From positions 6,688,001 through 6,752,000 of the forward strand of contig OY761556.1 of NCBI GenBank assembly GCA_963664705.1: a stretch of DNA of 64,000 bases, in the 5' to 3' direction. Position 1 is the first letter of the stretch; every line of letters starts with the position of its first letter. This DNA comes from Acidobacteriota bacterium. GTDB lineage: Bacteria; Acidobacteriota; UBA6911. Under the pieces are notes generated by a model. It was given only the letters and a program-made list of their open reading frames with translations. It was not told the origin of the DNA and ran no database searches. Of this stretch, positions 9,455 to 52,040 are shown one piece after another. A program made the position numbers and the translations under genes.

Positions 9455-9537
9455 TGCCGACAAATATTCCTATTCCCGGCTGGAACATAGACTCTCTGTG
9501 TCTTTGCAGTGTATGCTGGCGCTTTCCGAAAGGGTCT

Positions 9538-19976: not shown

Positions 19977-20053
19977 GCGCCCGTAGCTCAGCTGGATAGA
20001 GCGTTTGACTACGAATCAAAAGGTCGCAAGTTCGAGTCTTGCCGGGCGCACCA
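19977..20053 (+). tRNA. tRNA-Arg(ACG)
   Basis: 77 nt; acceptor stem GCGCCCG/CGGGCGC, anticodon arm TTTGA-CT-ACG-AA-TCAAA, GTTCGAG T-loop, encoded CCA. Confidence 0.97.
20007..20051 (+). repeat. att repeat, tRNA-proximal
   Basis: gactacgaatcaaaaggtcgcaagttcgagtcttgccgggcgcac. Confidence 0.93.
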
Positions 20054-20116
20054 CAAATCCTTGATTCTTCTGTAGTTGCCCATCTTCTGAAATCCGTAGT
20101 CCCTGGCCATAAGCAC

Positions 20117-20138
20117 CTTGGGGGTTATTTGGGGGTAA
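20117..20138. promoter_or_regulatory. Putative integrase arm-type site pair
   Basis: cttgggggttatttgggggtaa is identical at 29611-29632 and 31221-31242, with a variant at 31480-31500. Confidence 0.6.
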
Positions 20139-21212
20139 TCAGGCGGTTTTCGTCTTGTCTTTCGACGTAACTGCCAGCGAAGCTCCAAGCGCATTCATTG
20201 CCGCCCGGGTGTGCTCCGACGAGAGGTGAGCATATCTCAGTGTCATCTCAAAATCCTTATGCCTGAGAATTTCCTTCACGGTCGCGAGCGGAACTCCGCT
20301 CATGACCATGTGAGAGGCAGCGGTGTGTCTCAGTGTGTGGAATGTGACGTCTTCCAGCTTTGCCGCCTTGACAGCTTCCTCGAACTGCCGCTTGAGATCC
20401 CAGTAGGGCTGCCCTTTGATCTTCCCAGTGAAGACATAAGGAGAATCAAAGCGACGTGGAATGGATCGAAGAATCTCAACCGCTCTTTTGTCCAGCGGGA
20501 TGGTGGAATATTCGCCGTTCTTCTGGTCGAGGATTTCCAGATATTCCTGGCGAAGGTTGACATGCTCCCACTTCAGTCGAAAGACTTCGCTTTTGCGCAG
20601 TCCGGTGTGAAGTGCGAGCTCAATCATCTGCTTTAAGTCCGGAGTTGGACTGGCGTCCAGAAGAATGCTGCATTCTTCCGCGGTCAGATATCGCAACCGG
20701 CGATTGTTTTCCTTGAACTGCTTTACTCCGTGGCATGGATGGCTTTGGATAACCTTCCACTCAACAGCTTTGCTGAACAGATGCCGCAGACAAGCCATGC
20801 GGCGGTTGACCGTTGCCGGTTTGAACGGCAATTTGCGCCGGCTTTCTTTGTTCATCAGTTCAGCCTGGTACTTTTCAATGTCGGCACGTGTGATGCTGCT
20901 AAGCAAAGTGCCACTTCCGAATTGTGCTTTGATGCTCTCCAGATGAGACTCCTTGCTTTTGGCAGCTTTCTGGCCGATATCCTGGCACCATTGCGAATAC
21001 CGATCGGCGAATTGTCCGAGTGTGTCTTTGGAGACTCGTTTCTTTTCCAGGTATCGATCTTCATCAATGAGGGTCTGTATTTTCCTGAGATTTGTTTCAG
21101 CCATTTCCGGGGTAGCGCATGTTTCTCTTATTCGTACCCCTTTGAAGAACGTGTCTATCCTCCAGCGGTTGCCACGAGGCGCGATGCCAGGTGGTAACTT
21201 CTTTTTGCTCAT
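20139..21212 (-). CDS. int: Tyrosine recombinase/integrase
   Basis: HTGLRKSE (R), HTLRH, ILRH, TLRYAH catalytic residues; adjacent to the tRNA att site. Confidence 0.97.
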   Translation of the reverse strand: MSKKKLPPGIAPRGNRWRIDTFFKGVRIRETCATPEMAETNLRKIQTLIDEDRYLEKKRVSKDTLGQFADRYSQWCQDIGQKAAKSKESHLESIKAQFGSGTLLSSITRADIEKYQAELMNKESRRKLPFKPATVNRRMACLRHLFSKAVEWKVIQSHPCHGVKQFKENNRRLRYLTAEECSILLDASPTPDLKQMIELALHTGLRKSEVFRLKWEHVNLRQEYLEILDQKNGEYSTIPLDKRAVEILRSIPRRFDSPYVFTGKIKGQPYWDLKRQFEEAVKAAKLEDVTFHTLRHTAASHMVMSGVPLATVKEILRHKDFEMTLRYAHLSSEHTRAAMNALGASLAVTSKDKTKTA

Positions 21213-21304
21213 ATTTGTATCTCTCCGTTGGTAAAGGATTGTCGATCAATAACATCCCTGGTTTAGGATGCACGTTCATTCATTGACACGGCTGTGTGGA
21301 GGTG

Positions 21305-21520
21305 TCAATTGGATTTTGGCTTGATCAATGCTCGTTCGCTTCTCCGGAATAAGACAAGGTATCGCCAAAAGTGCCCATTGGGATCCTGGAAGACGATGGC
21401 AGTTTCGGATTTCCAGACAATCCTGTGCACAAAATGACCATCCAAAATCAGGGCAGGGGAAACAGATTTCGTTACCTCGTGCCGGGCCAGATGGATTTTT
21501 GTCATCTCAAGAAAGCTCAT
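21305..21520 (-). CDS. Small hypothetical protein between primase and integrase
   Basis: 71 aa, co-oriented with the core module, GAGG upstream. Confidence 0.45.
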   Translation of the reverse strand: MSFLEMTKIHLARHEVTKSVSPALILDGHFVHRIVWKSETAIVFQDPNGHFWRYLVLFRRSERALIKPKSN

Positions 21521-21537
21521 GCTATTGATTCCTCAGG

Positions 21538-21590
21538 TTGCGAGAAAAGCGGGATAAGCGAGATAAGCCGCCTTTTCTCGCTTTTCACGC
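21538..21590. repeat. 9-bp iteron cluster (putative origin)
   Basis: cgagaaaag cgggataag cgagataag followed by inverted cttttctcg cttttcacg, overlapping the primase stop codon. Confidence 0.65.
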
Positions 21591-23666
21591 AGATTTCCAT
21601 ACGGTTAACGGCCTTCCTTTGGTCTGTTTGCTCTCTTTTGTCACTTTGCCCACGCGCAATAATATATCCAGAGCTAGATCTTTCTCGCGAGTTCGATGCC
21701 CTCCAAAAAGGCGCCCAATCTCATCGTCTGTCAGGGATCCATCCGCTGATTCCTGCAAGGCATCGATAATCCTATCCGCACACTGATTCCCGGTCTTGGT
21801 TCCGAAGACATAGCGAACTGATGCATCGCAATAGTCCCATACTGCTGTTGCCGCCTGGAGATGTTCAATGCGGATCACGTTGGAACAATCCATTAGCGCA
21901 TAAATCAGGCTCAGCCGAAGCACTTGTGCCTCTGCCCGATTCAATAATCCACCAGCCAACCCAGGTTGGCCTTCAGATAAAGGGAAATAGATTGTTTCCC
22001 ACATTTCATTTGCCGGCGTATTGCGGACGATCCTGCCGGCGTTTCGGGCAAGGATCACGGCTCGTTCCATCTGTTCCGTCAGGCTGTTCAGTATCTCAGG
22101 CGGCAACGCCGCGCCGTGTGGTAATGCTTTTGATCTTTTTGCCAGCAGCCACAGGAACCGATTGCCAAACCCATTGCTCTGTTCTGTCGCAGACAGACAT
22201 CGGATCAATTCGTCTTTTGTGGTATGCCCGATGATCGAGACATGAGCGCCAGTTGAGTGGATAGGATTGTTACGAGTGAGCGTGGAAAGATTTCCGCTGT
22301 CCCACGCTTGCCGGATAACTCCTGAAAGGCTGTTTCCTTCTCGCCCCATGATCTTCAGCATGTTGGAAAATTCCGACTCGATGCAAAACAGACGCTTGTC
22401 TGGTTCTCCGGAATCAACAATCTCCTCTTCATAGTCGATAATTCGCCCACCCCTTTTTACCGGGACGGTTTTCCTCAATTCATCTCTGACGTGATAGATG
22501 AGTCCCTCTCCAGATGACAGCCCGCAGCGGACTCTACCTTCGGACCACTTGCCGTCAATCCTGCTGAATATTTCCCTTGGTGTGCTCCAGGATGTTCCTT
22601 TCCTCCCTTTGGAAGATTCTCCAATCACCACGGCGAAAATCCGAGCTGGATGCAGGTCATTTTGCACGGCTGCGTGTGCGCTGGACCCAATGATGTTTCC
22701 AAACGCGGCTAACACATGGATGAGCACAGAGGCCGGATCCGCTTCAGTATATGGGTCTATCGCGCGGACAATATCGCCAGGCAATCCATATAGAGCTTCA
22801 GGAGCCAGAACTGGCCATGAAAGAACTGTCGGTTCATTTTTCTGGCGCATCGAAATGTAGGGAGTCTTTTCATATGGAGACCCCTTTTGCATATGCTGGA
22901 TCAATTGATCATAAGTGCCTCCAGCTTGAATCCAATCGGACACATCTCCCTTTTCCGGCAATCCAGGAAGCGTCACAATCCCGACTCGGTTAGCGATAGG
23001 CATCAGATTGCGGGCAACGTCTCTTGCATGCCGTTCACCTGGCTCATCGTTATCTGGAAATATGGTCACTTCTTTACCGGTGAACAATGAATTGAAGTCC
23101 GCCCTCCATTTGCCGGCTCCTCCCGGATTGCAGGTTGCGGGAATGCCAATTGACCAGAGATGATCAACGTCCTTTTCGCCTTCGACGACGCAGACCATCT
23201 TTGAATCTTTCCATTCCGGCAACCTGTAGGGCAACAGCTTCACGCCCTGCATGCATCCCTCACCGCCGATCCACCCGCTGCCGTCCGCTCGCTCCTGAAC
23301 GAATGTCTTGCCTATTTGCGTCTTGTATCTTTTCACCCGAAACAGAGGATCCCCGTTCTCATTTCTATACACATAATCACAAATAAACTCCCAGCTGTTT
23401 TTCCCATTCAGCAGCCCATGATCACGCAGCCAGGATGAGACCGCTTTCCGGTTATCGGGATGAAGGCCGGAAATAAACGCCGCCAGATCCCAGGCATTGC
23501 CTGATTTGCCACAGGGGCCGCAGAGCCAGCAGTTCTTTTCCGGATTGATTGAAAGGCTGGGATGTTGATCGTCATGGCGAGGACACCGAAAAAGCATCTC
23601 TCTTCCTAAATACCGTCCACCCAAAAGGGCAGCTGCACGTGCGATCTCTATGCATTGGAGGGTCAT
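21585..23666 (-). CDS. Primase-helicase: CHC2-type Zn finger, Toprim and DUF3987-like P-loop domain
   Basis: CPRHDDQHPSL...CGPCG; VVEGEKD; FPDNDEPG; KGDVSDW; GESSKGRKGT; LSSGEGLI; GFGNRFLW. ATG 23666 overlaps the Xis stop (ATGA). Confidence 0.85.
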   Translation of the reverse strand: MTLQCIEIARAAALLGGRYLGREMLFRCPRHDDQHPSLSINPEKNCWLCGPCGKSGNAWDLAAFISGLHPDNRKAVSSWLRDHGLLNGKNSWEFICDYVYRNENGDPLFRVKRYKTQIGKTFVQERADGSGWIGGEGCMQGVKLLPYRLPEWKDSKMVCVVEGEKDVDHLWSIGIPATCNPGGAGKWRADFNSLFTGKEVTIFPDNDEPGERHARDVARNLMPIANRVGIVTLPGLPEKGDVSDWIQAGGTYDQLIQHMQKGSPYEKTPYISMRQKNEPTVLSWPVLAPEALYGLPGDIVRAIDPYTEADPASVLIHVLAAFGNIIGSSAHAAVQNDLHPARIFAVVIGESSKGRKGTSWSTPREIFSRIDGKWSEGRVRCGLSSGEGLIYHVRDELRKTVPVKRGGRIIDYEEEIVDSGEPDKRLFCIESEFSNMLKIMGREGNSLSGVIRQAWDSGNLSTLTRNNPIHSTGAHVSIIGHTTKDELIRCLSATEQSNGFGNRFLWLLAKRSKALPHGAALPPEILNSLTEQMERAVILARNAGRIVRNTPANEMWETIYFPLSEGQPGLAGGLLNRAEAQVLRLSLIYALMDCSNVIRIEHLQAATAVWDYCDASVRYVFGTKTGNQCADRIIDALQESADGSLTDDEIGRLFGGHRTREKDLALDILLRVGKVTKESKQTKGRPLTVWKSA

Positions 23667-23863
23667 GTCCGCCCGACCTCCCGTTGTTTCATCCACTTCG
23701 TCAGATCGGACGGCTTTACGCGAAAGACCCGTCGGCAGGCTCCCTGGGACACAATCACGCTTGGGATCTCGCCACTGGCAATCATCTGGTGGATCTTGCT
23801 TCGCCGGAGATTGAGGATTTCGCCGACTTCCTTGGGCCCCAAAAGTTTTTCAATAATCTCCAT
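23663..23863 (-). CDS. Excisionase-like helix-turn-helix protein
   Basis: 66 aa, LLGPKEVGEILNL.RSKIHQMIASGEIPS...RVKPSDL..W (HTH_17-like). Confidence 0.85.
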   Translation of the reverse strand: MEIIEKLLGPKEVGEILNLRRSKIHQMIASGEIPSVIVSQGACRRVFRVKPSDLTKWMKQREVGRT

Positions 23864-23889
23864 TGTTCCAGGCTCCTTGTGAGATGAAG

Positions 23890-24300
23890 TTAATGGCCTT
23901 CTGCTTCGAGCTTTTTCCGTATTGCCGCAGCCTCTTCTTTGGGTAGCCGGTGCAGGTTGTATCGTTCACTGTAGGTGAACTCGAAAACAGGCTTTGGCGT
24001 TTCCTGACGGGGCAGCAGCGGAATAAATCGCTCCTGGTGGGGCATTTGGGGACTATCCGCCTTATGTTGAATCGATAGAGTTTTTCTAGCCTCAGCATCC
24101 TTTCGAAAAAAATACACCTTGCGCCCACCGGATCGTGCTTTGACAAATTTTGCGATGGCTGCATGCTGAATGATCAGGCCGTGCCTCTCACGCAGAATGA
24201 CGGCAATTCGCCTGTAGGAGACAGGCGGCCGTTCGCTTCGCAAATCGCTGATTTCACTTTTGTATGGGATCAAGCTTGATTGAAATGGTTTTCCCGGCAC
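23890..24300 (-). CDS. Putative DNA-binding (HTH-like) protein, first gene of the core operon
   Basis: Basic 136-aa protein with SYRRIAVILRERHGL.I..AAIAKFVK; AAAGGA RBS. Confidence 0.65.
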   Translation of the reverse strand: MPGKPFQSSLIPYKSEISDLRSERPPVSYRRIAVILRERHGLIIQHAAIAKFVKARSGGRKVYFFRKDAEARKTLSIQHKADSPQMPHQERFIPLLPRQETPKPVFEFTYSERYNLHRLPKEEAAAIRKKLEAEGH

Positions 24301-24350
24301 GGGTTATTCCTTTCTGTTTCTGCAACATGGCGCTATGGAAAGAGGCAACA

Positions 24351-24456
24351 TGTCTCCGCTTTGTATCCGCTGTGTGTCCACTTCAGCGTTGAGGATGTAG
24401 AAAAGTGGAGACAGAGTGGAGACAAAGCGGATACAAGTCTCCACTTTGTCTCCACT
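24351..24456. repeat. Eight 11-bp repeats (consensus AGYGGAKACAR) in three alternating-orientation blocks
   Basis: tgtctccgctt tgtatccgctg tgtgtccact / agtggagacag agtggagacaa agcggataca / gtctccacttt gtctccact. Confidence 0.75.
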
Positions 24457-25141
24457 CCATTGGGGCTCGATGGGATGCTTCGAGGTATTGCGTCTAGGAT
24501 TGGAAGGGACCAATCCTAGAATTTCCATCAAGGCTTCCGTGGCTAACCGGCAACATGTAACATCGAATGAATCGCGCTCGATAGACAGAAAAAGGTGGGA
24601 GACATTTCTTGTCACGGCAATCTCCAATTAATGGGAAAGCATTGGTTCTTCCACCACTCATAGACAACGAGCGGGAAAATGGCTCAAAACTTACCGGGCA
24701 TTTTTCCGTATTGTCCTTTTTATCCGTGGCTCATTGCCGAATACCGTTTTGATAAAGAGTGAATGCCGTTCCGACCACCGGTTGCAGCACGTCAGTTTAT
24801 GTACCAAGAAAGGTCGTCACGCTGTCTTTCCATGCGCAGAAAATCCAGGAAAGAGTATACAGGCGATTTGAGAACACTTTTGTGGATGGCGGCTCATGAG
24901 GCCGCGAAAGAGGCCATTTGCCGGGCCAATTGAACAATGGTGAAACATGGAGAATCGATATGAACAATCACCCGGACGCAGAATAATAAAAAAACAAAAT
25001 GCAATTACCTATTGACACATTAAAGAATAAATACTCTTTTTTTAACGATCAATGGTTCAAGAAGTCACCGGAACGAGTGACGATAATTGCCTTCTTGATT
25101 CTGCCTCATCATGTGAAAATGGAGTCAAATTGGAGGCGTGC

Positions 25142-25534
25142 ATGGCTGCGGGTGATCCCCAGAGAACGTGGTTCCCGGAGATGATCCAGAAATTGCGGTT
25201 AGAGTGGAATGAAAGCATGGCTATCCCGGATCTAGTGGCACTATGCGATTCATTAGATAGCATGCTTCATGAAATTCGCTCCACTCGAAATATTCGCCCA
25301 CCTATCGTGAAGTGTCCTAAATGCGGAAAGGTTGGACCTGCCGCAGAAAGACATGTGAGTGTTCGTGCCATGATTCTTTCGCTAAGCCGGTTCGACATCG
25401 TCGATTCGGAGCGTGTAAAAATATTAGAGAAAAAATGGGCGGCTTATCGTAAAGAAAACGGGCTCAATCTCTATGGCAAGGCTGAAACTGGCGAAGTCAG
25501 AATCAGAAGCTGTGTCGATTCCGAAGCCGAGTAA
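25142..25534 (+). CDS. Hypothetical protein with CPKC motif
   Basis: MAAGDPQRTWFPEM...; GGAGG RBS before ATG 25142. Confidence 0.7.
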   Translation: MAAGDPQRTWFPEMIQKLRLEWNESMAIPDLVALCDSLDSMLHEIRSTRNIRPPIVKCPKCGKVGPAAERHVSVRAMILSLSRFDIVDSERVKILEKKWAAYRKENGLNLYGKAETGEVRIRSCVDSEAE

Positions 25535-25718
25535 TGCGTCGCAGAATAAAGCTCCTGAAGGGAACTTTCAGGTGGTAGGCGGTCCTCACGCAATTTTTGG
25601 CGTTTTATATAAGTTAGGGACCCGACTTTACATATTGGCGTTCTTTCCCCCAATCGGACTTATCGGGACCGGTGATTCTGATTAGTGTTTTCTATGCGGC
25701 TAGAGCTATGGTAGAGGT

Positions 25719-26099
25719 ATGAACCTTCTGAATCGTTCAGTTCTCGGCTTTTTGGTTTTTGCTATCTCCATATGCTTTGGGGCATTGCTTGCGTTCTCGG
25801 CCAGTTCCGTTTTTCGGATGCATCCTTTTGGGGATAAGACTTCGGTTTTGTTTCCAGTATTAGTAGGGATACCATTGGGCTGCGCGCTTGGAAGTGCCAC
25901 GAATCTAAAAATGCATAGACCAAAGATATATGAGAATCGCGGCATCCTGGTGGCGGCGGCGATTGTGGGAGCTTTGGGAGCAATGCTGTGCGTTGTTTTG
26001 GCTGATGCGCTTGAAGGCAAAATATTGCTCCTAAGCCCCTTCATTGTGAGCATCCTGTCTTTTGGAGCATTTTGCTTTTTAATTCATTCCAGGCCCTGA
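25719..26099 (+). CDS. Small membrane protein with about 4 TM segments
   Basis: Four hydrophobic stretches; GAGG directly upstream. Confidence 0.6.
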   Translation: MNLLNRSVLGFLVFAISICFGALLAFSASSVFRMHPFGDKTSVLFPVLVGIPLGCALGSATNLKMHRPKIYENRGILVAAAIVGALGAMLCVVLADALEGKILLLSPFIVSILSFGAFCFLIHSRP

Positions 26100-26259
26100 G
26101 ACAATTACCATTATGGCGTTCTCTCCCATATTCGGACTTCCTGGGACTTGTGTCTAGAAATATGTGATCTAAAATCAATTGTTTCACATCCTACAAGTCA
26201 GCTACAGTTTAGCCTTGGTCTGCGTCAGTTACGCAATTGCATTATGTGAGGGGCTGAAA

Positions 26260-27702
26260 TTGTCTGTCCAAGCGAAATGGTGCAAATTAGCGATGCACTG
26301 TATGGTTTTTACGTCCATACTGCATTATTCTGCTTTCAGTCAATCCGAAAGTAAGAACCCGATAGACAAGGCGCAATCCAGCGGTTCGTTCAATATTCAT
26401 GTGGATGTCGATTTAGTTACTACTGACGTGACCGTGACTGGAGCCGACGCGCCAGAATTTCAGGCCAGCGATTTTGCAATTTATGAAGACGATGTTTCTC
26501 AAAATCTAACCTACTTCTCTCGTGATCAACTTCCGATTGCAGTTGCGTTGTTGGTTGACAGCAGCGGCAGCATTGAAAAGCATCTGAATGAATTGCAAAT
26601 TGCGGCGCTGACTGCATTACGGCGTCTGAAAGCGGAAGATCAAGTCGCGCTCTATTCCTTTTCAGGCGGCTACAGGAAACTGAGCAACCTCACAGCTGAT
26701 CGATTGCATATAGCCAAATTACTCAGCCATCTCTCAATCATGGAAGGCGGGACTGATATATTTTATGCACTCCAGGATGCAACGCGTTACCTAAAAAGGG
26801 CAGCTCCGCATCATCGCAGAGCGATTATTCTTATTTCCGACAATTGCCATGCCAATGGCAAAGCCAGGCCCGACAAAATGCTGAATGAGTTGCTGGAAAG
26901 TGCCACCACGCTTTATGATATTGTAACTCCCAGCGACCATAGTGACTTGCCTTACTGTTTGATGACGGATCCCGCCATAAGAAAAATTTCTGCCGATTCC
27001 GGCGGTGAAATTGTGGATGTAAGAAACTCGATGTCGCTCAAAGGAGCATTGGGAAAAGCTATATCCAGAATTCGAATGCAATACACTTTGGGTTTCAATC
27101 CATCTGATCCCAGCCCAAAGGGGACATATCATAGATTAAAGGTCCGCTTTGCCGATGAGAATCGTTGCCGAACATGCAGAATTATCGGACGTAGCGGATA
27201 TTATTCAGGAGCATCGTTATCCGTTGCAGTTTCCGGCAAGACACAAGAAATAGCGCCACCTCACTCGACAGACTCTGATCAGCAGTTGTTGCAGAGAATT
27301 ATCCTTATTGCAGGGACATCTTCGCCAGAATTTCGTGAAATTCCATTCACGGTTACAACTGAAAAGCAAACAGCTCTCAGTGGAAAAAGAGAGGTTAAAC
27401 TTGATTTGCGGATTAATCCTTCTGAAATAGAGTTTCAGATTTCCAAGGGAAAACGAACCTACAAAGTGGTTGCAGCCATTCTGCACGCAGATGCGAAAGG
27501 AGAGATAAAAGGCTGCGAATCGTGGGTACTTGAAGATCAGCTTAGCAGGGAGGAATTTGATCGCATAATTAGGGACGGAATTCATGTAACTACTACGGTC
27601 AATTTGGAGCCACAAAATCAAATGCTAAAAGCCGTAATTTATGATGAAAACAGCGGCAAACTAGGCAGTGGATTTGTTTTTGGCTCTTACGGCGAGCGCT
27701 GA
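26260..27702 (+). CDS. Acidobacterial VWA-domain protein with C-terminal extension
   Basis: IHVDVDLVTTDVTV, MIDAS DSSGS, GGTD, ILISDN, QYTLGF; TTG start at 26260 after GAGGGG (start uncertain). Confidence 0.85.
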   Translation: MSVQAKWCKLAMHCMVFTSILHYSAFSQSESKNPIDKAQSSGSFNIHVDVDLVTTDVTVTGADAPEFQASDFAIYEDDVSQNLTYFSRDQLPIAVALLVDSSGSIEKHLNELQIAALTALRRLKAEDQVALYSFSGGYRKLSNLTADRLHIAKLLSHLSIMEGGTDIFYALQDATRYLKRAAPHHRRAIILISDNCHANGKARPDKMLNELLESATTLYDIVTPSDHSDLPYCLMTDPAIRKISADSGGEIVDVRNSMSLKGALGKAISRIRMQYTLGFNPSDPSPKGTYHRLKVRFADENRCRTCRIIGRSGYYSGASLSVAVSGKTQEIAPPHSTDSDQQLLQRIILIAGTSSPEFREIPFTVTTEKQTALSGKREVKLDLRINPSEIEFQISKGKRTYKVVAAILHADAKGEIKGCESWVLEDQLSREEFDRIIRDGIHVTTTVNLEPQNQMLKAVIYDENSGKLGSGFVFGSYGER

Positions 27703-27729
27703 TCACAACCATGATGGGAGGCATTCCCA

Positions 27730-28956
27730 ATGCGAGAAGCTGATATTTCGTTAAAAAATAACCGGATTTTAATACTTCTGATAATTGGAATCGTTTTTGT
27801 TTGCTTTTCAGTGCGTGTGAATAGCAGAGAGAATCAGATTCAATCTGTGGACAGGGTGCAACAGTCCAGCGGGCCGGATGGAGATGCAAAAATCCGAGTC
27901 TCCGCTAAAGAGATAAGATTTGATGCTGTAGTTTTAGATAAGAGCGGCCATCAAGCCATTGATCTAAAATCAGCTGATTTTGATATCTATCAAGATAATA
28001 AGAAGCAAACAGTCAATTCATGCACTTATATCGCCCATAGGCCAATCCATCTTGCAGTGCCAACTCACGTGTCAAAGGGATCAAAGACGGAGTCAATGAT
28101 AGCTTCTTCCGGACTGAGCGGCGTCGATACTCGACGAAAGATAGTCTTTTTCCCAAACTATCCCGCTATGACCCTCAAGCAAAGTCATGAGACCCAGATG
28201 TTTATTAAGAAGTTTATTGAGGACGAAATGCAGGAAGGGGATCTGGTCGCGATCACAATGAATCCGCAGGGCGATACGGAGTCGCAGATCTTCAGCTCTG
28301 ATAAAGCTTTTGTTCTTTCCGTGCTGACCCAGGGTAAATGGTGGAGCGGGCCACAACAGAATATGGAAGGGTATGGCTTGCCACTTAGTAATTGTATTCG
28401 TAAATTACAAAATATTCCCGGCCGCAAATCGTTAATAGTAATCTCACCTGAGCCGGCGTATTTGGCCGGCTACGTATACCAAGTAATATCCCCTGAATTA
28501 TTAGAGAAGATGCATGAAGTACCGGCTGATGCCGCTTTCCGGGCCGGAGTTGTCATTCACATAATAGATATTAGCGAACCGAAAAAACTTGATGCGATTG
28601 ATCACACTTTTTCTTCAGCTGGGAGTATTAGTGCTGCGGAAGAAGCAAACATGATTCGCCATGAACTCGCGAGAAAAAGTGCTGAGTCTCAATTTCCTTT
28701 GGCAAAAAGAACCGGAGGCCTTTTGGCCAAGAATTTATCAGCAAAAACAATGGAAAACATAAAGGAACAATTAGGCGGTTATTACCTGCTAACTTATACT
28801 CCGGAAGAGAGCACTTTCACTCCTCCCCCAGACTTGAGTAGGAGGCCTCCCTATCGCAAGATAAAAATCAAAGTGAAGCGATCAGGTATGGAAGTATATG
28901 CGCGAGATGGTTTCTTTGGAGTGCCATCACGCGAGAACACTGTAACGGGGAAATGA
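27730..28956 (+). CDS. VWA-related protein with degenerate MIDAS
   Basis: IRVSAKEIRFDAVVLDKSGH...DFDIYQD, PGRKSLIVIS, TGG, YYLLTY.P, YRKIKIKV, ARDGFF; no DxSxS. Confidence 0.8.
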   Translation: MREADISLKNNRILILLIIGIVFVCFSVRVNSRENQIQSVDRVQQSSGPDGDAKIRVSAKEIRFDAVVLDKSGHQAIDLKSADFDIYQDNKKQTVNSCTYIAHRPIHLAVPTHVSKGSKTESMIASSGLSGVDTRRKIVFFPNYPAMTLKQSHETQMFIKKFIEDEMQEGDLVAITMNPQGDTESQIFSSDKAFVLSVLTQGKWWSGPQQNMEGYGLPLSNCIRKLQNIPGRKSLIVISPEPAYLAGYVYQVISPELLEKMHEVPADAAFRAGVVIHIIDISEPKKLDAIDHTFSSAGSISAAEEANMIRHELARKSAESQFPLAKRTGGLLAKNLSAKTMENIKEQLGGYYLLTYTPEESTFTPPPDLSRRPPYRKIKIKVKRSGMEVYARDGFFGVPSRENTVTGK

Positions 28957-29167
28957 TTTCCTCATTTCTGACCCTTTAAAAACCGCATTTTTGTCTTAAG
29001 TCCCAAGAAACGGCATTCGAGGAAACTACTCTGGCTTTGCAACAGTGGCGGATTCCATTTTTGCTGGCAGCTAAGTTTCAAGCTTTGAAAGATGACGCTT
29101 TTGTGGAATGATCTCTGGAATCGCTTCTAATCTTATAGTCCATGAAATTACTTGGCCTAAATTCGAG

Positions 29168-29216
29168 ACGCACTAAACACGCAGAATTTACGCACCATCG
29201 GCGCACCAAGCACGCA
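29168..29216. repeat. Imperfect 11-bp tandem repeat (ACGCA core, about 5 units)
   Basis: acgcactaaac acgcagaattt acgcaccatcg gcgcaccaagc acgca. Confidence 0.55.
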
Positions 29217-29308
29217 TCCGGATAAATGCCCTTCCGGAAACTTGAATTCTAAGGCGAAGCCTTAGGGATGGTGTCTTACTACAGATATTTCCACAAGCAG
29301 CAACACCT

Positions 29309-29392
29309 CACCGGACCATACCCTGACAAACACCGGACAAGCGCCGGACACCGAACAGACGTCGAACAACAGTCGAACAAACACCGAACAGT
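29309..29392. repeat. Imperfect ~11-bp tandem repeat (CACCGRACAAA-like, about 8 units)
   Basis: caccggaccat accctgacaaa caccggacaag cgccggac accgaacaga cgtcgaacaac agtcgaacaaa caccgaacagt. Confidence 0.6.
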
Positions 29393-29531
29393 AGATATCC
29401 AGAATGCCTTCTCTGTGCGTATTCTGATCTGCGTTCTGATAAAGGTTGATAGAGAACGCAAGCTGAACAATGGGGTACTAGTGGATCGATGATTGAGGCT
29501 CCGACCGGTGCTCAGTCATTCATAGCCCAGA

Positions 29532-29632
29532 CTTTTCTCGCTTATCTCGCTTTTCTCGCATGCCCGGATATTTTGAATTGTTCCCGCGATGTCGGAATTA
29601 CTTGAAAATTCTTGGGGGTTATTTGGGGGTAA
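29532..29632 (+). repeat. ~100-bp direct repeat A (3 iterons plus arm-type pair)
   Basis: cttttctcg cttatctcg cttttctcg ca...gaaaattcttgggggttatttgggggtaa; aligns along its length with 31139-31242. Confidence 0.85.
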
Positions 29633-29642
29633 ATATCGATGT

Positions 29643-29663
29643 TTATTTATTTACAATAAATAA
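29643..29663. promoter_or_regulatory. Inverted repeat in the AT-rich abiE promoter (putative AbiEi operator)
   Basis: ttatttatt-tac-aataaataa, a perfect 9-bp inverted repeat ~20 bp before the ATG. AbiEi proteins are known to autorepress at promoter inverted repeats. Confidence 0.5.
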
Positions 29664-29684
29664 CAAATATGTTAATTATTATAT

Positions 29685-30326
29685 ATGAAATATGGATCGC
29701 TGGTTGAGCTGGTTGGCTCCATGGAATGCTTCGATCTGCAGCTGCTTGTGCAGGCATTCGCTGAACCGCGAGAAATTATCCGGGTGCAGTTGTCCCGCTG
29801 GATCAGCGACCACAAGGTAATCAGTCTGCGACGCGGAGTTTATACGCTCCCAGACACCTATCGCCGCGTATCTATCGTGCCGGCAAGACTGGCGAATCAA
29901 CTCTATCACCCATCTTATCTGAGCGGCTTGTGGGCTTTGGGTTACTACGACATGATCCCCGAAAGAGTCGTATGGTTGACGAGCGTAACTCCTCGGGTGC
30001 CCCGTCGTTTTGACAATTCTCTTGGCATTTTCGATTATCGCAGCATTAAACAGAAGGCGTTTTTCGGATCTGTAACCGCACCCTACGGCGATCGGTCCAT
30101 ATTGGTTGCGGAACCTGAGAAAGCGCTACTGGATCATTGGCATCTCACATCGGGTGAGTGGACTGCAGAACGCCTTGAGGAAATGCGCTATCAGCATTGT
30201 CGGCAGGTGAATAGGGACAAGCTTCAAGCCTATGCAGATCGTTTCCAAAGCCCGCGCTTATATCGAGCAGCCGAACGCTGGCTGACGGTAACAGCCGAAG
30301 AAGAGAAAGGCACGGTTACTCTATGA
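29685..30326 (+). CDS. abiEi: Type IV toxin-antitoxin AbiEi-family antitoxin
   Basis: QLSRW...LRRGVY, PSYLSGLWALGYYDMIPE, AEPEKALLD; overlaps the toxin gene (ATGA). Confidence 0.88.
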   Translation: MKYGSLVELVGSMECFDLQLLVQAFAEPREIIRVQLSRWISDHKVISLRRGVYTLPDTYRRVSIVPARLANQLYHPSYLSGLWALGYYDMIPERVVWLTSVTPRVPRRFDNSLGIFDYRSIKQKAFFGSVTAPYGDRSILVAEPEKALLDHWHLTSGEWTAERLEEMRYQHCRQVNRDKLQAYADRFQSPRLYRAAERWLTVTAEEEKGTVTL

Positions 30327-31129
30327 GGGATCAGGCACTGGCACTTGCACGTGGAGCAAAAGATCCGGGGCAGGCGCTCAACCTGCTGCGAGAATATCTC
30401 CAAACGCTTGTCCTGCGATCATTTCATGAGTGTGAGGCATTTCGTAATCTGGCGTTTGTCGGCGGTACAGCGTTACGCTTCCTCCATAATCTGCCGCGTT
30501 TTTCTGAAGATCTCGATTTCTCGATGGTGTCTGAAAAGGGCTATGCCGGCATGGAGTGGATGTCGAAAGTCAAACGTGATTTGTCTCTGGCAGGATTCGA
30601 TCCCCACCTCACCTGGAATGATCGCAAGGTTGTTCATACAGGATGGATCCGGCTGGCAGGGCTGCTTTATGACGCCGGCATTTCCGGAGTGCCGGACCAG
30701 AAGCTGGCCATCAAGCTGGAAATTGACACTCGTCCACCGGCTGGGGCAATCTGCGAAAGAAGCATCATTACCCGTACCGTGACTTTTTTTGTCCAGCATT
30801 ACGATCTGCCGTCCATGATGGCGGGCAAGCTTCATGCTGCAATTACACGAAAATATGTCAAAGGCCGCGACTGGTATGATCTCCTGTGGTACAGGACGCA
30901 ACGTCCGCCAGTTGAACCGAACATTAATTTGCTTCAGAAGGCTTTGGATCAAACTCATCGTTCAGCCAAATACAATGCCCATGCGTGGCAAAGCTTGGTG
31001 AGTGATCGTCTGGCGTCAATCAGCATCAAAGATATTACCGGCGACGTTTATCCATTTTTGGAACACCCTCAGGATGCCGCACTCCTTACGCGGGAAAATC
31101 TGTCTGGTTTATTTTCAGTTCAACATTGA
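30323..31129 (+). CDS. abiEii: AbiEii-family nucleotidyltransferase toxin
   Basis: FVGGTAL...RFSEDLDF, IKLEID, K..A...R...GRDWYDL. Confidence 0.92.
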   Translation: MRDQALALARGAKDPGQALNLLREYLQTLVLRSFHECEAFRNLAFVGGTALRFLHNLPRFSEDLDFSMVSEKGYAGMEWMSKVKRDLSLAGFDPHLTWNDRKVVHTGWIRLAGLLYDAGISGVPDQKLAIKLEIDTRPPAGAICERSIITRTVTFFVQHYDLPSMMAGKLHAAITRKYVKGRDWYDLLWYRTQRPPVEPNINLLQKALDQTHRSAKYNAHAWQSLVSDRLASISIKDITGDVYPFLEHPQDAALLTRENLSGLFSVQH

Positions 31130-31138
31130 GGTTGCGCC

Positions 31139-31242
31139 CTTATCTCGCTTTTCCCGCTTTTCTCGCAAGCCGGGATAAGCTTGAAGTGCCCCTTGCGATG
31201 CTGGAATTTGCCGGAAAATTCTTGGGGGTTATTTGGGGGTAA
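31139..31242 (+). repeat. ~100-bp direct repeat B (3 iterons plus arm-type pair)
   Basis: cttatctcg cttttcccg cttttctcg caa...gaaaattcttgggggttatttgggggtaa; the first 30 bp match the reverse complement of 21538-21567 with one mismatch. Confidence 0.85.
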
Positions 31243-31369
31243 TTGGGAGGCAAAAACAGCTTTTGGTGAACAAGATGGACAAATCAAATATCCTAATTAC
31301 AGCTAATAACCATGAGGGTGCGACGCATATTCTTGATTTATCTGGATTTATGAAAAATGCTCCTGGAGG

Positions 31370-31414
31370 GACTACGAATCAAAAGGTCGCAAGTTCGAGT
31401 CTTGCCGGGCGCAC
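31370..31414 (+). repeat. Distal att repeat (duplicated 3' part of tRNA-Arg)
   Basis: 45/45 identical to 20007-20051. Confidence 0.93.
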
Positions 31415-31504
31415 TCTAACCCCTTCAATCCTCTTAACTTAAGCACCCGGTTCAATTCGCAACTCCTGTTCATGCTGTCCTTGGGGGCTATATGGGGGCA
31501 GTTG

Positions 31505-31654
31505 TGCTGTTTTTGCCTCTTCTTTGGGTTTCACTTTCAAAGCTTTACTCAATGCTTCCAATGCTTCTTGCCGATGTTCCGGTGATAGATGCGAATATCT
31601 CAGGGTTGTTGAATAATCCTAGTGTCTGAGGATTTCCTTCACCGTGTGCAGATC
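31505..31654 (-). pseudogene. Relic C-terminus of a second, related tyrosine integrase
   Basis: Manual translation DLHTVKEILRH*DYSTTLRYSHLSPEHRQEALEALSKALKVKPKEEAKTA versus PLATVKEILRHKDFEMTLRYAHLSSEHTRAAMNALGASL...KTA in the intact integrase; in-frame stop and missing 5' part. Confidence 0.88.
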
Positions 31655-33283: not shown

Positions 33284-34147
33284 TTAAGCGGCTTTGGCAG
33301 ATTCCTCATAGGCTTCAGGGCTCCGATAGCCCAGAGCCGAGTGAAGCCGCTGTCGATTATAAAACACTTCGATATACTCAAAAATATCTGATTGCGCCTC
33401 CTTTCTCGTTTCGTAATTTCGATGATAAATAAGTTCTGTTTTCAGCGTGGCAAAGAAACTTTCCATAACAGCATTATCCCAGCAATTGCCTTTGCGGCTC
33501 ATGCTGCAAAGAACTCCGCTAGATTTCAATAACTTCTGGTAATCCCCGCTGGCGTATTGGCTGCCTCGATCTGAATGATGGAGCAGACCTGGTGATGGGT
33601 TACGTTTGAAAAAAGCCATGCACAGAGCTCTTTCAACCAGATGTCGACAAATCCGGCTACCCATGGCCCAGCCAACGATCCTTCTTGAGTACAGATCCAT
33701 CACCGCGGCCAGATACAACCAGCCTTCTTTTGTTGGGATGTATGTGATATCCGCCACCCAAGCTTTGTTTGGCATTTTCACCGCAAATTCCCGGTTCAAC
33801 ACATTTGGAGATATCGGGAAATTATGTTTTGAATCTGTCGTAACTCTAAATTTCCGTTTCTGTTTGCCTTGGATCCTATTCTCGCGCATTAGCCTGGCAA
33901 TACGATTCCTGCTGTGTAATTTGGACACTGCCCGCAATTGCGCATGAATTCTGGGACTTCCGTACGCGCCCCGGCTTGCCCGATGAATTGCCCGAATTGC
34001 TAGTAATAATCGGCTGTTCTCTGCATTCCTCGGGCTCTCGGGCCGCTTGAGCCAAAGGTAGAATCCGGCTCTGGATACTTCAAGCACTCGACACATCAGC
34101 GATATCGTAAATTCATGCCGATGCGCTTGAATGAAGCCATACCTCAT
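33284..34147 (-). CDS. IS3 transposase OrfB (DDE domain)
   Basis: [38 protein letters not shown]; A7G -1 frameshift motif at ~34176-34183. Confidence 0.93.
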
Positions 34148-34437
34148 TTGGATTCTTTGGCAAAGAACGCCGTCGCTTTTTTTAATATATCGCGCTCCTG
34201 ACGCAGTAAGGCATTCTCGCGCCGTAGGCGACGGAGTTCTTCCTCCTCTGGTTTCAAATGCCCAGATCCCGGAAATGCTTGAGAGGTGTTTGCGAATTCC
34301 TTTTTCCAACGTGTCAGCATGTTTGCGTTTATTCCCAAATCTCTGCTGGCCTGTGCAATGGTGATATTTGACTCGGTGAGCATACGAACTGCTTCGATTT
34401 TGAATTCCTTCGTGTACTTCCTTCGCTGTTTTTCCAT
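34144..34437 (-). CDS. IS3 transposase OrfA (HTH)
   Basis: [13 protein letters not shown]...[15 protein letters not shown]. Confidence 0.93.
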
Positions 34438-34686
34438 GACACACCCTCTGGTGGACTAGAATGTTCCACCCTTTTCAGTGTGTCAACGGAATCGGGTCAT
34501 GGTTAAACTCTCATAAGGTCGTTTTTGCTGGATGTGTGGTCGGTCCTGAGGAATGGGAAACGGTCTTGTATTGCCCCAAATGTCGAGCAGCGGAAAGCGA
34601 ATGGCTGAGAAAACACTGAAGTCCGAACTAATGGCAGATGTTAAATCAAGACTGAAGCAGGAGGGGTTGTTAAGGTTTGAGCGGGG

Positions 34687-43412: not shown

Positions 43413-43603
43413 TATCTCTTCTATCAGGAAAATTCATAATACACAATAATGTATATAAATATAGATAGTAATACATATATGTAACATGTCAAAAGGCAAA
43501 GGGAAACCTGCACCTGCTGGATGGAAGCGCTCTGCTACCCGTGAATTCAAGGAATAATGCGGTTTTTCGCTGCAAAAGCCTGCATTCATGATCCAGGCAT
43601 TCC

Positions 43604-43619
43604 TGGCACGGTTATTGCA
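43604..43619 (+). promoter_or_regulatory. Sigma54 -24/-12 promoter
   Basis: TGGCAC-GGTTA-TTGCA, a full consensus match ~75 bp before ATG 43695. Confidence 0.8.
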
Positions 43620-43694
43620 TTTTCAAAATTGTGCAGTATTGAGTTGAAACGGCTCTCGGTCCTTGCGGAGGGGACGTCCGCGCGGAGGAATGCA

Positions 43695-45152
43695 ATGCAT
43701 TTTGATTCCTACCAGACTGAAGATTATCACGATGAAATGTTCCATGCCGACGGGACGGCACGACCTGAAGCCCGCCTGCTGCTTGAAGCTATTGAATCGC
43801 TCGATGACGGCCAACTGCTTCGCTACCAGCGTGCAGCCGAGCGATTGCTCTTGCAGATGGGGATCACCTTCAACGTGTATGGGGATTCGTCGGGAACGGA
43901 ACGGATCTTCCCTTTTGATATGATCCCTCGCATTGTTCGCGCAGATGAATGGCGCCGGATAGAACAGGGCCTCAAGCAGCGTATTCATGCCTTGAACGCT
44001 TTTATCAACGATATCTATCATGATCGCAACATTCTCAAGGACAAGGTCATCCCTGAAGACCTGATTCTTTCGGCGGCTTCCTATCGACCTCAGTGTTGTG
44101 GCATCGACCCGCCCCAAGGAGTCTGGTGCCACATCACCGGGACGGATCTGATCCGACACAGCGACGGTCAGGTTTACGTTCTCGAAGATAACCTGCGAGT
44201 TCCTTCCGGCGTTTCCTATGTCCTGGAAAACAGGAACATTATGAAGCGGACGTTTTCGCTGGTCTTTGAAGGGCTGAAGGTACGTCCCGTGGATACCTAT
44301 CCGGGGAAATTGCTGGAAACGCTGCAATCGCTCTCTCCCAGCAAAACCGGTGCTGATTCCACCGTTGTTGTATTAACGCCCGGAATGTTCAATGCCGCGT
44401 ACTTTGAGCACAGTTTTCTGGCAAGGCAGATGGGAATCCAGCTTGTCCAGGGCGAGGATTTGGTGGTCGAGGATGGATATGTCTGGATGCGCACGACGAA
44501 AGGTTTATGCAAGGTGGATGTCATTTATCGGCGCATTGATGATGATTTCCTTGATCCTATGGCGTTCCGATCCGATTCCCTCCTGGGTGTACCCGGCATC
44601 ATGCAGGCCTACCGTGCGGGACATGTCGCTCTGGCCAACGCTCCCGGGAACGGCATCGCCGACGACAAGGTGATCTACACCTATGTCCCGGATATGATCC
44701 GCTATTATGAAGGCGAAGATCCGATTCTCCCCAATGTTCCCACTTTTCTTTGCTGGAGAGACAACGAGCGCCAGCATGTCCTGCAAAACCTGGAAAAACT
44801 CGTCGTAAAGGCAGCGAATGAGGCCGGCGGATACGGGATGCTGGTCGGCCCGCATGCAACACCAGCACAGCGGGAGGCATTTGCGGCCAGGATTGTGGCA
44901 AACCCGCGGAACTACATTGCGCAGCCTACCCTGGCCCTCTCCCGTGTACCAACCTTGATTGAGGATCACCCGGAAGGGAGGCATGTCGACCTCCGGCCTT
45001 ACATCCTCTACGGCAGGGACATTACTGTTTTGCCCGGCGGGCTAACCCGTGTTGCGCTCCGGAAAGGATCTCTCGTCGTCAATTCTTCCCAAGGTGGAGG
45101 AAGCAAAGACACGTGGGTTCTTGCCGATTCAGAAAGGAGTCACGACCAATGA
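43695..45152 (+). CDS. Circularly permuted type 2 ATP-grasp protein
   Basis: [55 protein letters not shown]; GGAGG RBS. Confidence 0.95.
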
Positions 45153-46147
45153 TCGGCAACCGGCCTTTGCTCAGCAGGGTGGCGGATTCCGTGTATTGGA
45201 TGGCTCGCTACATCGAGCGAGCGGAGAATGTCGCCCGATTTATTGGCGTCAATCTGCACTTGCAGCTGGACCTTCCGCAGGAATTCGCACATCAGTGGCA
45301 GCCACTGATTGATACCAGCGGCGATTCGACTCTATTCCTGGAAAACTACGGCATTCCTACCAGGGAGAATGTCATCAAGTTTCTAACGCTGGATCCAGCC
45401 AACCCGAACTCGATCTATTCCAGCCTTCGTGCCGCGAGGGAAAACGCACGCTCGATTCGCGAAACCATTTCATCGGAAATGTGGGAACAGATTAACGATA
45501 TTTACCTGCAGATACTCTCGCAGCAAACAATGCCTGAGGCGGAGCATCTTCTTGAGATGCTCCGGAGCGTGAGAATTGCCGGCCACCTGTTCCAGGGGCT
45601 TACCGATGCAACCATGAGCCACAATGAAGCATGGCATTTTTTGCGCCTCGGCCGAACTTTGGAACGCGCTGACAAGACATCCCGAATTCTCGATGTAAAA
45701 TATTTCATCCTGCTCCCTTCCATTGGAACCGTCGGAACTCCCTACGACGATCTGCATTGGGCAGCTGTCTTGAAATCCGTTAGCGGATTTGAAATGTATC
45801 GCAAGAAGCATGGACAGATCTCACCCCGAGACATTGTGGCGTTTTTGATCATGGATCGGGAGTTCCCTCGTGCGATCCATCATTGCATGCAAATATCCGA
45901 TGAATCTCTGCACGCAATAACGGGAACGCCTTTCGGTTCCTTCCGATACAAATCCGAACAGATGCTGGGTCGATTACGGGCCCAGCTCAATTTCACTACC
46001 GTGGATCAGGTACTTCGCGAAGGACTGCATGAATTCATTGACCGGCTGCAGGAGAGCATTAATGACATCGGCAACAGCCTGCATGCGGATTTCTTTTCCG
46101 GGCACCAGTTCGCAAAAGTTGCGGCAAGCGGGGAGTTTCAGAAATGA
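45149..46147 (+). CDS. Alpha-E domain protein
   Basis: [42 protein letters not shown]. Confidence 0.95.
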
Positions 46148-49100
46148 GTATTCGTGTTGCACTGTATCACAAGACAATTTACGAGTACGACCGGATGGTT
46201 TTGCTTGGGCCGCAGACCGTTCGCCTGCGGCCGGCCCTGCACGGGCGTACTCCGATAACCGGATATTCCTTCCGGGCCGAACCGAAAAGCCACTTCATCA
46301 ACTGGCAACAGGATCCACAGGGTAATTTTCTTGCTCGCCTGGTATTCCCGAATCCAACCAGTCTGTTTTCTGTTGAAGTGGATCTCATCGCGGACATGAC
46401 AGTCGTAAATCCGTTCGACTTCTTCCTTGATCCCTGCGCCGAAGTCTACCCATTCCGTTATGAGCCCTACCTTGAACGCGAATTGAGGCCCTATCTGGAG
46501 ACAACCCCCGCGGGGAAAATCCTGCAAAGATTTGTTCAAAACATCGCACCGCAGGCAGGGAACACGATCGAATTTCTCGTAGACCTCAACCGTCGTGTAC
46601 AGGAGGAAATTCGTTATGTCATCCGTCTCGAAGCGGGTGTTCAGTCGCCGGAAGAAACGCTTGCGCTGAAAAGCGGCTCCTGCCGGGACTCGGGCTGGCT
46701 TTTGACGCAGATCCTGCGACGGCTGGGGCTTGCCGCCCGTTTCGTCTCAGGGTATCTGATTCAGTTGAAGCCGGATGTGAAGCCGATCGAAGGTCCGGCC
46801 GGCACTGAGACAGATTTTACCGATCTGCATGCATGGACCGAAGTGTATCTGCCTGGGGCCGGTTGGGTCGGACTGGATCCCACCTCGGGCCTGCTTGCGG
46901 CTGAAGGGCATATTCCCCTCGCGGCAACACCCGAGCCCCATTCGGCAGCTCCGGTCAGCGGAATGATCGGCGAGTGCGAAGTCGCGTTTCGCCATGAAAT
47001 GCGGGTCACCCGCATTCATGAAGATCCGCGCGTTACCAAGCCGTATTCTGATGAACAATGGGCGGGCATTCTCTCTCTGGGAGATCAGGTGGATGCCGAC
47101 CTCGCGAACGAAGATGTCCGGTTGACCGTAGGAGGAGAGCCCACCTTTGTTTCCATTGATGACATGGAGGGGGCAGAGTGGAATACGGCCGCACTGGGCG
47201 CGGATAAGCAAAAACTGTCTGCGAACTTGCTGCTTAGATTAAGAGATGCCTTCGGGCCCAGGGGATTGCTGCATTTCGGACAGGGGAAATGGTATCCCGG
47301 TGAATCGTTGCCCCGATGGGCATTCAGTTGCTACTGGCGGAATGATGGCCTGCCGCTTTGGCGTAATCCTCGTCTGATCGCGGATCCGGCGCTTGATTAT
47401 GGCGCCGGCGATGATGAATCGCGCCGATTTGCGCTGGAGCTGTCCGCCCGCATGGGCATTGAATCCAGATATGTCATTGATGCATTTGAAGACCCATGGA
47501 TCTACCTGCAAAAGGAGCAGCAGCTTCCAATCAATGTTGACTGGAGCGACAGCAAGCTTGACGACCCTGAGGAACGGGAGCGAATTCGCCGTATCCTCCA
47601 CCATGGGCTCGGCAAGCCGGTCGGCTTTGTTCTTCCCTTAAGAAAGGGAGCAGGCCAATCCGGGCCGGAGTGGCAATCGGGACCGTGGCGATTGCGCTCC
47701 GGAAGGCTATTTCTGCTGCCGGGAGATTCCCCGATTGGATTTCGTCTCCCCCTGTCATCCCTACCCTGGGTCCCGGATTTGGCGGAAGAGAGAATTATTC
47801 CTGCCGACCCAATGCTTCCCAGAAGTCCACTGCCACCGCCTCGCCCTCCAGGGAGCCCGTTCCCCTTGCAGGAACAGAGAATCTATCGTGGCGACCCTGC
47901 ACAGTCCGAACCATCCTCCTGCTCTGAAAACCCGGTTATCCGGACCGCTCTCGCCGTTGAGTCGCGAGAGGGCAAGGTATGTGTGTTTATGCCTCCTACC
48001 GGACATGTCGAGGATTATCTGGAATTGACGGCCCTGGTAGAGGAAACGGCTGCCGCCCTCAATATGCCTGTTTTGATTGAAGGGTATCCGCCCCCGTATG
48101 ATCCCCGGCTGCGCAACCTCAAGGTGACGCCCGATCCCGGCGTAATTGAAGTAAACATCCATCCTGCGACAAGCTGGAGGGAATCGGTCGGAATAACCAC
48201 AATCTTGTATGAGCAGGCTCGATTGTGTCGCCTCGGTACCGAGAAGTTCATGCTGGATGGCCACCATAGAGGCACCGGCGGCGGCAATCATATGGTCCTT
48301 GGAGGGCCGACGCCGGCGGAAAGTCCCTTTTTGCGAAGACCCGATCTTCTCAGAAGCTTCCTCTGCTATTGGCTGAATCACCCATCGCTGTCATACCTTT
48401 TTTCCAGTGTCTTCGTGGGCCCCACAAGCCAGGCATGTCGTGTGGATGAGACTCGACCCGATTCGGTCTATGAACTGGAAATAGCATTCCGCCGCCTCCA
48501 CGATTCCCAAAATGGAAATTTTGCAGCCTGGATGGTTGATCGATTCTTTCGAGATCTCCTGGTGGATTCGGCGGGCAACACGCACCGGTCGGAATTCTGC
48601 ATTGACAAGCTTTACTCTCCGGACACTTCCTCAGGCCGGCTGGGATTGGTCGAACTGCGCTGTTTCGAGATGCCTCCGGACGCCCGGATGAGCTTGGCCC
48701 AACTGCTGCTGGTTCGAGCTCTCATCGCTGCATTCTGGCGTTCGCCTTATTTGGAAGCGCCTGTTCGCTGGGGAACTCGGCTGCATGATCTCTTTATGCT
48801 TCCCTACTACGTTGCCCGGGACTTTCAGTCAGTCATCACGGATTTGCGGAACGCGGGATATCCATTCGATCCGAGCTGGTATGCCCCTCATATGGAATTC
48901 CGTTTCCCAATCTACGGCAAGGTATGCTACGAGGGAATTGAGCTGGAATTACGGCAGGCGATTGAACCATGGTATGTTTTGGGCGAAGAACCAGGGATGG
49001 GCGGGACAAGCCGCTACGTAGACTCTTCGCTCGAAAGACTGCAGTTGCTGGTGCGCGGTCTATTGCCGGAACGATATGCCGTAGCCTGCAACGGAAGGCG

Positions 49101-49470: not shown

Positions 49471-49492
49471 CCAACATGGATTTAGGAATTCT

Positions 49493-52033: not shown

Positions 52034-52040
52034 GAGATAC

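Follow-up and report, generated by a model that had tools for sequence, protein, structure and literature searches.

An AbiE pair in the right-end cargo slot of a small tRNA-Arg island of an Acidobacterium, with the inner copy of a doubled end unit as the likely leftover of a fused sister island

In the stretch of Acidobacteriota DNA analysed here, 64,000 nucleotides in length and called the window in the following, an AbiE toxin-antitoxin pair is enclosed by two copies of a unit of about 100 bp, one of which stands at the right end of a small island. The question that the locus raises is what the doubled unit means. An earlier note on this DNA regarded the pair as a swappable cassette, gained by recombination at the end region and removable in the same way, with the two copies coming from two related elements. 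We hold, with moderate confidence, that AbiE fills the variable right-end cargo slot of a small tRNA-Arg island and that the internal copy is the likely leftover end of a sister island fused with it; as for the doubled end, a one-off scar is the most likely reading, not the dedicated border of a cassette. The origin of the copies from two related elements is part of our preferred reading too.

The island and the AbiE pair at its right end

The island, of about 11.4 kb, is sited in an Acidobacterium at a tRNA-Arg(ACG) gene (19977-20053, + strand; ARAGORN and Rfam) and is bounded by two identical 45-bp core copies, with the attL core being the 3' part of the tRNA gene (20007-20051) and the attR core being the copy of that part (31370-31414, +). 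The tRNA was the only match of the Rfam scan. At the left end a doublet of 11-bp direct repeats (20118-20138, +), likely arm-type integrase sites, abuts the stop of an open-frame tyrosine integrase of 357 aa (20139-21212, - strand; Pfam Phage_integrase, E 4e-31; PHROG 1). Two inverted sets of 9-bp iterons (three and two; 21538-21591), likely the replication origin, overlap the stop of a 703-aa primase in which a Zn-finger/Toprim part is fused to DUF3987 (21585-23696, -; Pfam and PHROGs). Next to the primase lie a 66-aa HTH_17 protein, likely an Xis-like excisionase (23663-23863, -; Pfam, E 2e-9), and a 136-aa ORF (23890-24300, -), for which sequence comparison gave a homologue in the relative L088 and the profile scans gave no family. 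Internal cargo, composed of two small ORFs and two VWA genes of the Acidobacteria type (NCBIfam TIGR03436), occupies 25052-28956 on the + strand. To the right of AbiE a conserved linker (31243-31369, +; 70-79% identical in other right ends) leads from the terminal doublet to the attR core, behind which lies the left-end remnant of another related element (31415-31645, +), with a variant doublet and the last 49 integrase codons (57% identical). The contig depth of the element relative to its flanks, 0.7-0.9 in run X1 and about 1.4-1.5 in run X3, was inconsistent and was left unused.

Some further features of the region are noted here. Beyond the origin lies a 71-aa ORF (21305-21520, -) with no Pfam match and no usable Atlas match; by eye, similar sequence is seen in relatives at the same spot, and it is present across elements of differing primase types. 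Upstream of the 136-aa ORF there is an imperfect inverted repeat with 45-bp arms (24339-24457; compare 385-449 of L088), which could be an operator, an oriT or a structured RNA; part of the sequence adjoining it recurs, conserved, in relatives and at other places of the genome, and no Rfam family covers it. Outside the island, an IS3-type transposase gene (rve, HTH_21; 33284-34444) lies 2 kb beyond attR, and the stretch 43557-52907 holds a gene cluster with circularly permuted ATP-grasp, Alpha-E, DUF2126 and transglutaminase, which we take to be an operon of the peptide-tagging type.

The two units of about 100 bp that the earlier note had placed on either side of abiE are indeed there. The internal one, U1 (29532-29632, +), is a coreless copy of the end unit, with its iterons at 29532-29558 and its doublet at 29612-29632, and the terminal one, U2 (31139-31242, +), has its iterons at 31139-31165 and its doublet at 31222-31242. 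They are 82% identical over 104 bp (BLASTN), each being composed of three 9-bp repeats CTTWTCYCG, a spacer of 53-56 bp and a 29-bp block identical in both (29604-29632 and 31214-31242), which occurs exactly twice in the 6.89-Mb genome, with the next-longest exact match being 15 bp. The abiEii stop precedes the start of U2 by 10 bp, and U1 ends 12 bp before the inverted repeat of the abiE promoter. The linker and the attR core continue from U2 only; U1 has neither, in the window as well as in the metagenome contig L033, which carries the same order of U1, abiEi, abiEii and U2 at 83-99% identity. In L033, U1 has one repeat of the doublet left, continues for 6 bp of linker sequence and is separated from the promoter by about 95 bp more than in the window, implying that the right border of U1 is not a fixed junction. 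Junctions of the L033-type layout were seen in runs X5, X6 and X7. Around U1 the window and L033 are 83-86% identical, and over the pair they form a mosaic, 86-89% identical over most of abiEi and 92-100% from about 30165 on, which indicates that sister elements recombine inside the block from U1 to U2. It is also observed that at positions 1-100 of L033 the sister element has U2 and the linker but passes into unrelated sequence 10-15 bp ahead of the tRNA core, and that run X6 has a loose end at 31360, at the L033-type divergence point near the core; such a divergence ahead of the core points to a different target or an insertion.

The pair itself is a bicistronic antitoxin-toxin operon with overlapping frames, where abiEi (29685-30326, +) encodes an antitoxin of 213 aa (PADLOC AbiEi, E 5e-46) and abiEii (30323-31129, +) a nucleotidyltransferase toxin of 268 aa (PADLOC AbiEii, E 5e-65; Pfam AbiEii). 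The abiE promoter is marked by an imperfect inverted repeat (29644-29686, +), likely the AbiEi operator, with a self-inverted match in homologues on both strands; a sigma70-like site at 29650-29679 was not above chance, and the promoter and terminator scans gave chance-level results. All of the motifs I-IV are present in AbiEii, at residues 46 (VGGT), 59 (RFSEDLD), 169 (KLHAAITR) and 182 (RDWYD), with the definitions of the toxin motifs in PMC3985639 being hGG..DhD, K..A...R and +DxxD. By these features the pair would be classed as an AbiE type IV toxin-antitoxin system. We predict that it probably adds to the stability of the island and that it may act against phages by abortive infection. 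AbiE is reported to have stabilised an ICE.

Two signals in one unit

The earlier note took the unit for a right-end signal. This holds for U2, which is the right-end block, but the doublet stands also at the left end and the iterons also at the 3' end of the primase gene. We consider that the unit combines two signals, an origin-type iteron triplet and an 11-bp doublet, and is not purely a right-end mark.

Arm-type sites are short tandem repeats on either side of the core, varying with the integrase. In the window's element and in two other complete elements, L069 and L027, the left doublet matches the right one, while the doublets at these two places differ from element to element. Since the doublet changes with each integrase at both ends, the 21-bp doublet is likely a pair of integrase arm-type sites. 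Among other genomes of the genus, 6 of 29 have it, and none of 31 more distant genomes does. As a separate observation, the same or nearly the same arm doublet is found at different tRNA cores (Arg-ACG, Arg-TCG and Ala-type) in L088, L022, L019, L085 and L026, the last of which lies in the own genome (C1:5738400-5743900).

The CTTWTCYCG repeats are probably origin iterons bound by the C-terminal domain of the primase. This domain of the window's primase is found in all four primases that lie beside these iterons (61-79%) and has no match in the three other elements, and elements with other primase types carry other iterons at the primase-stop position. As for cognate iterons near attR, none was found in L027, and L069 has a single match, 7 bp long and some 1.3 kb away from the core; the additional triplet beside attR seems specific to the window's clade.

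In our estimation it is rather unlikely that the iteron triplet in the attR arm is bound by Xis and not by the primase, with all else being as in the preferred reading. The distance between triplet and doublet is nearly constant (in 22 of 24 units the first G run is 55-58 bp away), as in an intasome, and Xis partly co-varies with the iterons, at 88-89% in two iteron-bearing elements and 42-62% in two others. Against these two points, the repeat tracks the primase C-terminal domain, and the triplet lies outside the arm sites on the core-distal side, where Xis sites of the lambda type are not known to lie. Moreover, the repeat forms inverted sets at the primase stop, which is the place of the PICI origin in PMC6092414.

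Origin of the internal unit

A swappable cassette between paired ends is not supported. We collected 26 right-end units, 18 of them with at least 1.7 kb of upstream sequence, and a second unit within 4 kb occurs only in the window and L033 and in none of the 16 other informative ends. Weak upstream iteron hits in L022, L038 and L077, without spacer and doublet, were dismissed as chance. Because U1 is coreless, the integrase cannot cut at it, and because L033, the sole relative with two units, has the same AbiE, the shared layout speaks for inheritance, not swapping. The window's AbiE clade has nine other loci, eight at 75-89% DNA identity and one at 65%, which align only from the promoter at about 29640 to about the stop. 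The end unit is absent from the downstream flank at all nine and from the upstream flank at the six where that flank is on the contig, and the pairs of G006 and G014 are found on the outer side of an attR, at distances of 2.4 kb and about 0.2 kb. The earlier note had named AbiE-bearing relatives with a single end unit as evidence against its proposal, and the nine loci, with no unit downstream, go largely in that direction.

The signs of swapping that the earlier note had suggested looking for did not appear either. Different cargo was always beside a single unit, with neither other cargo between two units nor an empty allele at the 16 other informative ends, and the deletion of about 1.6 kb that would leave a U1-U2 joint or an empty allele was not found in six contig runs (X1, X3, X5, X6, X7 and X10), in which rare variants are invisible since contigs drop them. 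A skip of 1562 bp in X5 (28946 to 30509), with the units untouched, was set aside. A search of the phylum with the end region, over 401 genomes with no more than 3 others of the same genus, gave a match in the own genome only. Viral contigs gave 7 doublet matches, all without iterons or element genes, and no primase relative in a search sensitive to close relatives only.

In the reading that we prefer, two sister elements would have stood in tandem at the tRNA gene or have undergone recombination in circular form. A deletion starting just behind the arm sites of the first element and ending just before abiE would have removed the junction core. What would be left is the left part followed by U1, abiE, U2 and attR, so that the observed order would arise in one step. 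The integrase would then excise the entire 11.4 kb via U2 only, while the RecA-dependent loss of abiE between U1 and U2, across 29 bp of perfect identity, would be possible in principle, rare and opposed by the toxin.

Several observations argue for this leftover end. U1 is without linker and core, and its right border is shifted in L033; doubling is absent in 16 of 16 other informative ends, and the AbiE clade is unit-free at all nine other loci; and U1 is directly preceded, on its 5' side, by a fragment of a different mobile element. The tandem fusion is suggested by the tandem piles that are common at these tRNAs: besides the left-end remnant after the window's attR, L017 has a pair of units separated by 13 kb, both accompanied by linker and core sequence, L021 holds two cores as well as an orphan unit that is truncated, and iteron sets without a doublet are found in L020, L078, L090 and L091. 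For SXT/R391, PMC5812530 describes tandem arrays that collapse into hybrids. Neither a remnant of the integrase nor a fragment of the core of the lost junction was found between U1 and abiE, and with no trace of the junction remaining the fusion history is inferred, not seen. Two further points count against a relic. The layout is present in two lineages about 15% apart at U1, a span over which a neutral repeat might no longer be expected to survive. Moreover, all 4 differences between the U1 iterons of the window and L033 fall at the two degenerate positions (P ~0.0009 if random), with the spacer differing at 10 of 53 positions, and the U1 iterons thus look constrained.

The piece 5' of U1 is the scar of another mobile element (29170-29400, +), in which a conserved 27-mer (29249-29275) lies between 11-bp-phased repeat arrays. 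The 27-mer is found in 7 of 137 genomes of the class and, at 6 of 9 other loci, beside AAA_30/UvrD_C_2 (relaxase-helicase-like) genes, near their 3' end; it probably serves a second family of mobile elements as a site of the att, res or oriT type. At the 27-mer loci (the window and L109-L118) a short hairpin is also observed, and phased repeats precede the 27-mer in every locus and stand on both sides in the window and L111.

A fairly unlikely alternative is that U1 is a local duplication of the island's own end unit, made in the course of abiE capture, by a process such as template switching or illegitimate repair at protein-bound iterons, and diverged since. Among the spacers of 24 units, those of U1 and U2 are each other's nearest non-orthologous matches (72-79%, with the next at 68-72%), and the homology among units stops at the first iteron, the very edge where the cargo changes. 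The margin, however, is small (0.72-0.79 versus 0.68-0.72), and the FastTree tree of the 24 short units, which is poorly resolved, has no supported clade of U1 and U2; no other cargo comes with a duplicated unit (0 of 16), and sister elements at one tRNA are also expected to share similar spacers.

We regard it as quite unlikely that U1 is functional, with its iterons kept for the primase-helicase as an extra origin half or a recombination point and the block from U1 to U2 being a cassette gained or lost between the units. The substitutions in the U1 iterons respect the consensus, the layout is kept in L033 with junctions in three runs, and the mosaic means that sisters recombine within the block. 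By contrast, there is neither an empty allele nor other cargo between two units in the sets given above, the unit does not travel with the AbiE clade (0 of 9) and the doublet of U1 is broken in L033, while consensus-respecting changes are also expected from once-functional ends or from conversion between adjacent repeats.

An extended form of this idea, which we likewise regard as improbable, is that the triplet at attR is a detached second origin half, its outer edge a replication-linked point of cargo addition and the U1-abiE-U2 block a trapped intermediate of a swap. P4 uses two separated iteron sites, ori1 and crr, which parallels the window. If it is true, new cargo together with an end would be joined outside the old end and the intermediate would resolve by loss of either abiE or the old end, giving a visible mechanism for the turnover of defence hotspots in satellite-like elements and making the cargo swap testable on a 2-kb substrate.

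Finally, an assembly artefact, which the earlier note had named as something to be checked, is rejected and keeps practically no weight, with no point found in its favour: 20022-31399 is covered by a single 11,378-bp unitig with zero differences, running through both copies, in X1 and X3 (two runs of one sample, possibly the source), the copies are merely 82% identical, and L033 has the layout with differences of its own.

The cargo slot behind the iteron triplet

At 20 of the 26 right ends, the nearest or next gene is of a toxin-antitoxin or defence type, of about seven kinds. By the family scan, the cargo is the window's AbiE at 2 ends, another AbiE clade at 3, Fic/SoFic-like at 5, AAA_14-DUF4143/PDC-S01 at 4, Gp49 RelE-like at 3 and DUF5615 at 1, and 2 ends have an antitoxin-like protein 84-97% identical to the Gp49 partner. 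Six of the 26 ends (L023, L029, L038, L077, L079 and L082) have no gene of such a type. For comparison, none of 36 window ORFs outside the element matches such families in Pfam; this control covers 36 of the 44 called ORFs, with a stricter cut-off and Pfam without PADLOC. As the right ends are kin, the counts are to be read as about seven independent kinds of cargo, not as 20 events. The defence hotspot that the earlier note had proposed is therefore real as a position, though beside a single unit and without doubling.

The border of the slot is sharp. The homology among 25 aligned units ends exactly at the first iteron, with the column conservation being 0.28-0.56 before it and 0.72-1.0 inside. 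The cargo mostly reads away from the unit; the window's abiE and one AAA_14 gene in L021 read toward it.

The following observations were also made at these ends. Mini-islands of 1.3-5.5 kb (L022 at 10270-11690, L019, L085 and L026) hold an end unit and a toxin-antitoxin-like or defence gene, with the primase and most or all of the integrase lost, and are possibly mobilised in trans. Unassigned or HEAT-repeat proteins occupy the end slot in L082 (10118-12174), L079 and L038 (410-2131), and are candidate defence genes. In L023 (G006:C56), the stretch 6341-10065 after attR holds an HTH/peptidase-type repressor-like gene, two small toxin-antitoxin-like genes, an ATPase-like ORF and an AbiE homologue, appearing as a graveyard of islands with clustered toxin-antitoxin modules, where all labels except AbiE were given by eye.

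What emerges is a family of small PICI-like islands that is confined to one genus of the Acidobacteria. Their right end is sharply bordered by an iteron triplet of the origin type, and the modules found immediately behind it are two AbiE clades, Fic, two AAA_14-DUF4143 types, RelE-like pairs and a PIN-like gene. The end slot is a place to look for untested defence genes, which we consider a more useful outcome than the doubled end.

Comparison with known systems

In the limited literature searched, we found no publication on this island family of Acidobacteria. The AbiE pair is like that of S. agalactiae, as given in PMC3985639, in being bicistronic, in having motifs I-IV and a promoter inverted repeat, and in lying on a mobile element; it differs in belonging to another subfamily (PADLOC PDLC02241/PDLC02293), with no Pfam AbiEi match at E 0.001.

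By the order of its backbone genes, the island resembles PICIs. A backbone of the PICI type is present (integrase, Xis/HTH, primase-replicase and origin, with att repeats), and the size lies within 10-15 kb. Compared with the Gram-negative PICIs of the EcCICFT073 type, as PMC6092414 describes them, the island is alike in its size of about 11 kb, the left-end integrase, the small HTH gene, the fused primase-replicase, the iteron origin immediately 3' of the primase, the core genes reading in one direction and the accessory genes at the far end. It differs in that the iteron sets of its origin lie 4 bp apart with no AT-rich gap, such a gap being present at the origin of the relative L027, and in that the attR arm has an additional triplet. 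No terS, capsid or interference genes were recognised among the 9-10 element ORFs scanned with PHROG, Pfam and NCBIfam, three of which are without a family.

With the P4-like satellites, as presented in PMC13586616, the island shares one variable end-adjacent slot with unrelated defence modules and the retention of intact defence genes by defective elements. Its primase is different (Toprim-DUF3987), its host is an Acidobacterium and its cargo is mostly small toxin-antitoxin-like modules, and none of the P4 core genes psu, sid, delta, ash and alpha was recognised in it with PHROGs and Pfam. In that paper, the mechanism of the cargo swap at the P4 and P2 hotspots is stated as open.

While the window's elements are without conjugation genes and the leftover is a coreless arm block, they are like the SXT/R391 arrays and the ICESt1-related elements, as described in PMC5812530, in that related elements pile up at one site and collapse to hybrids with leftover ends.
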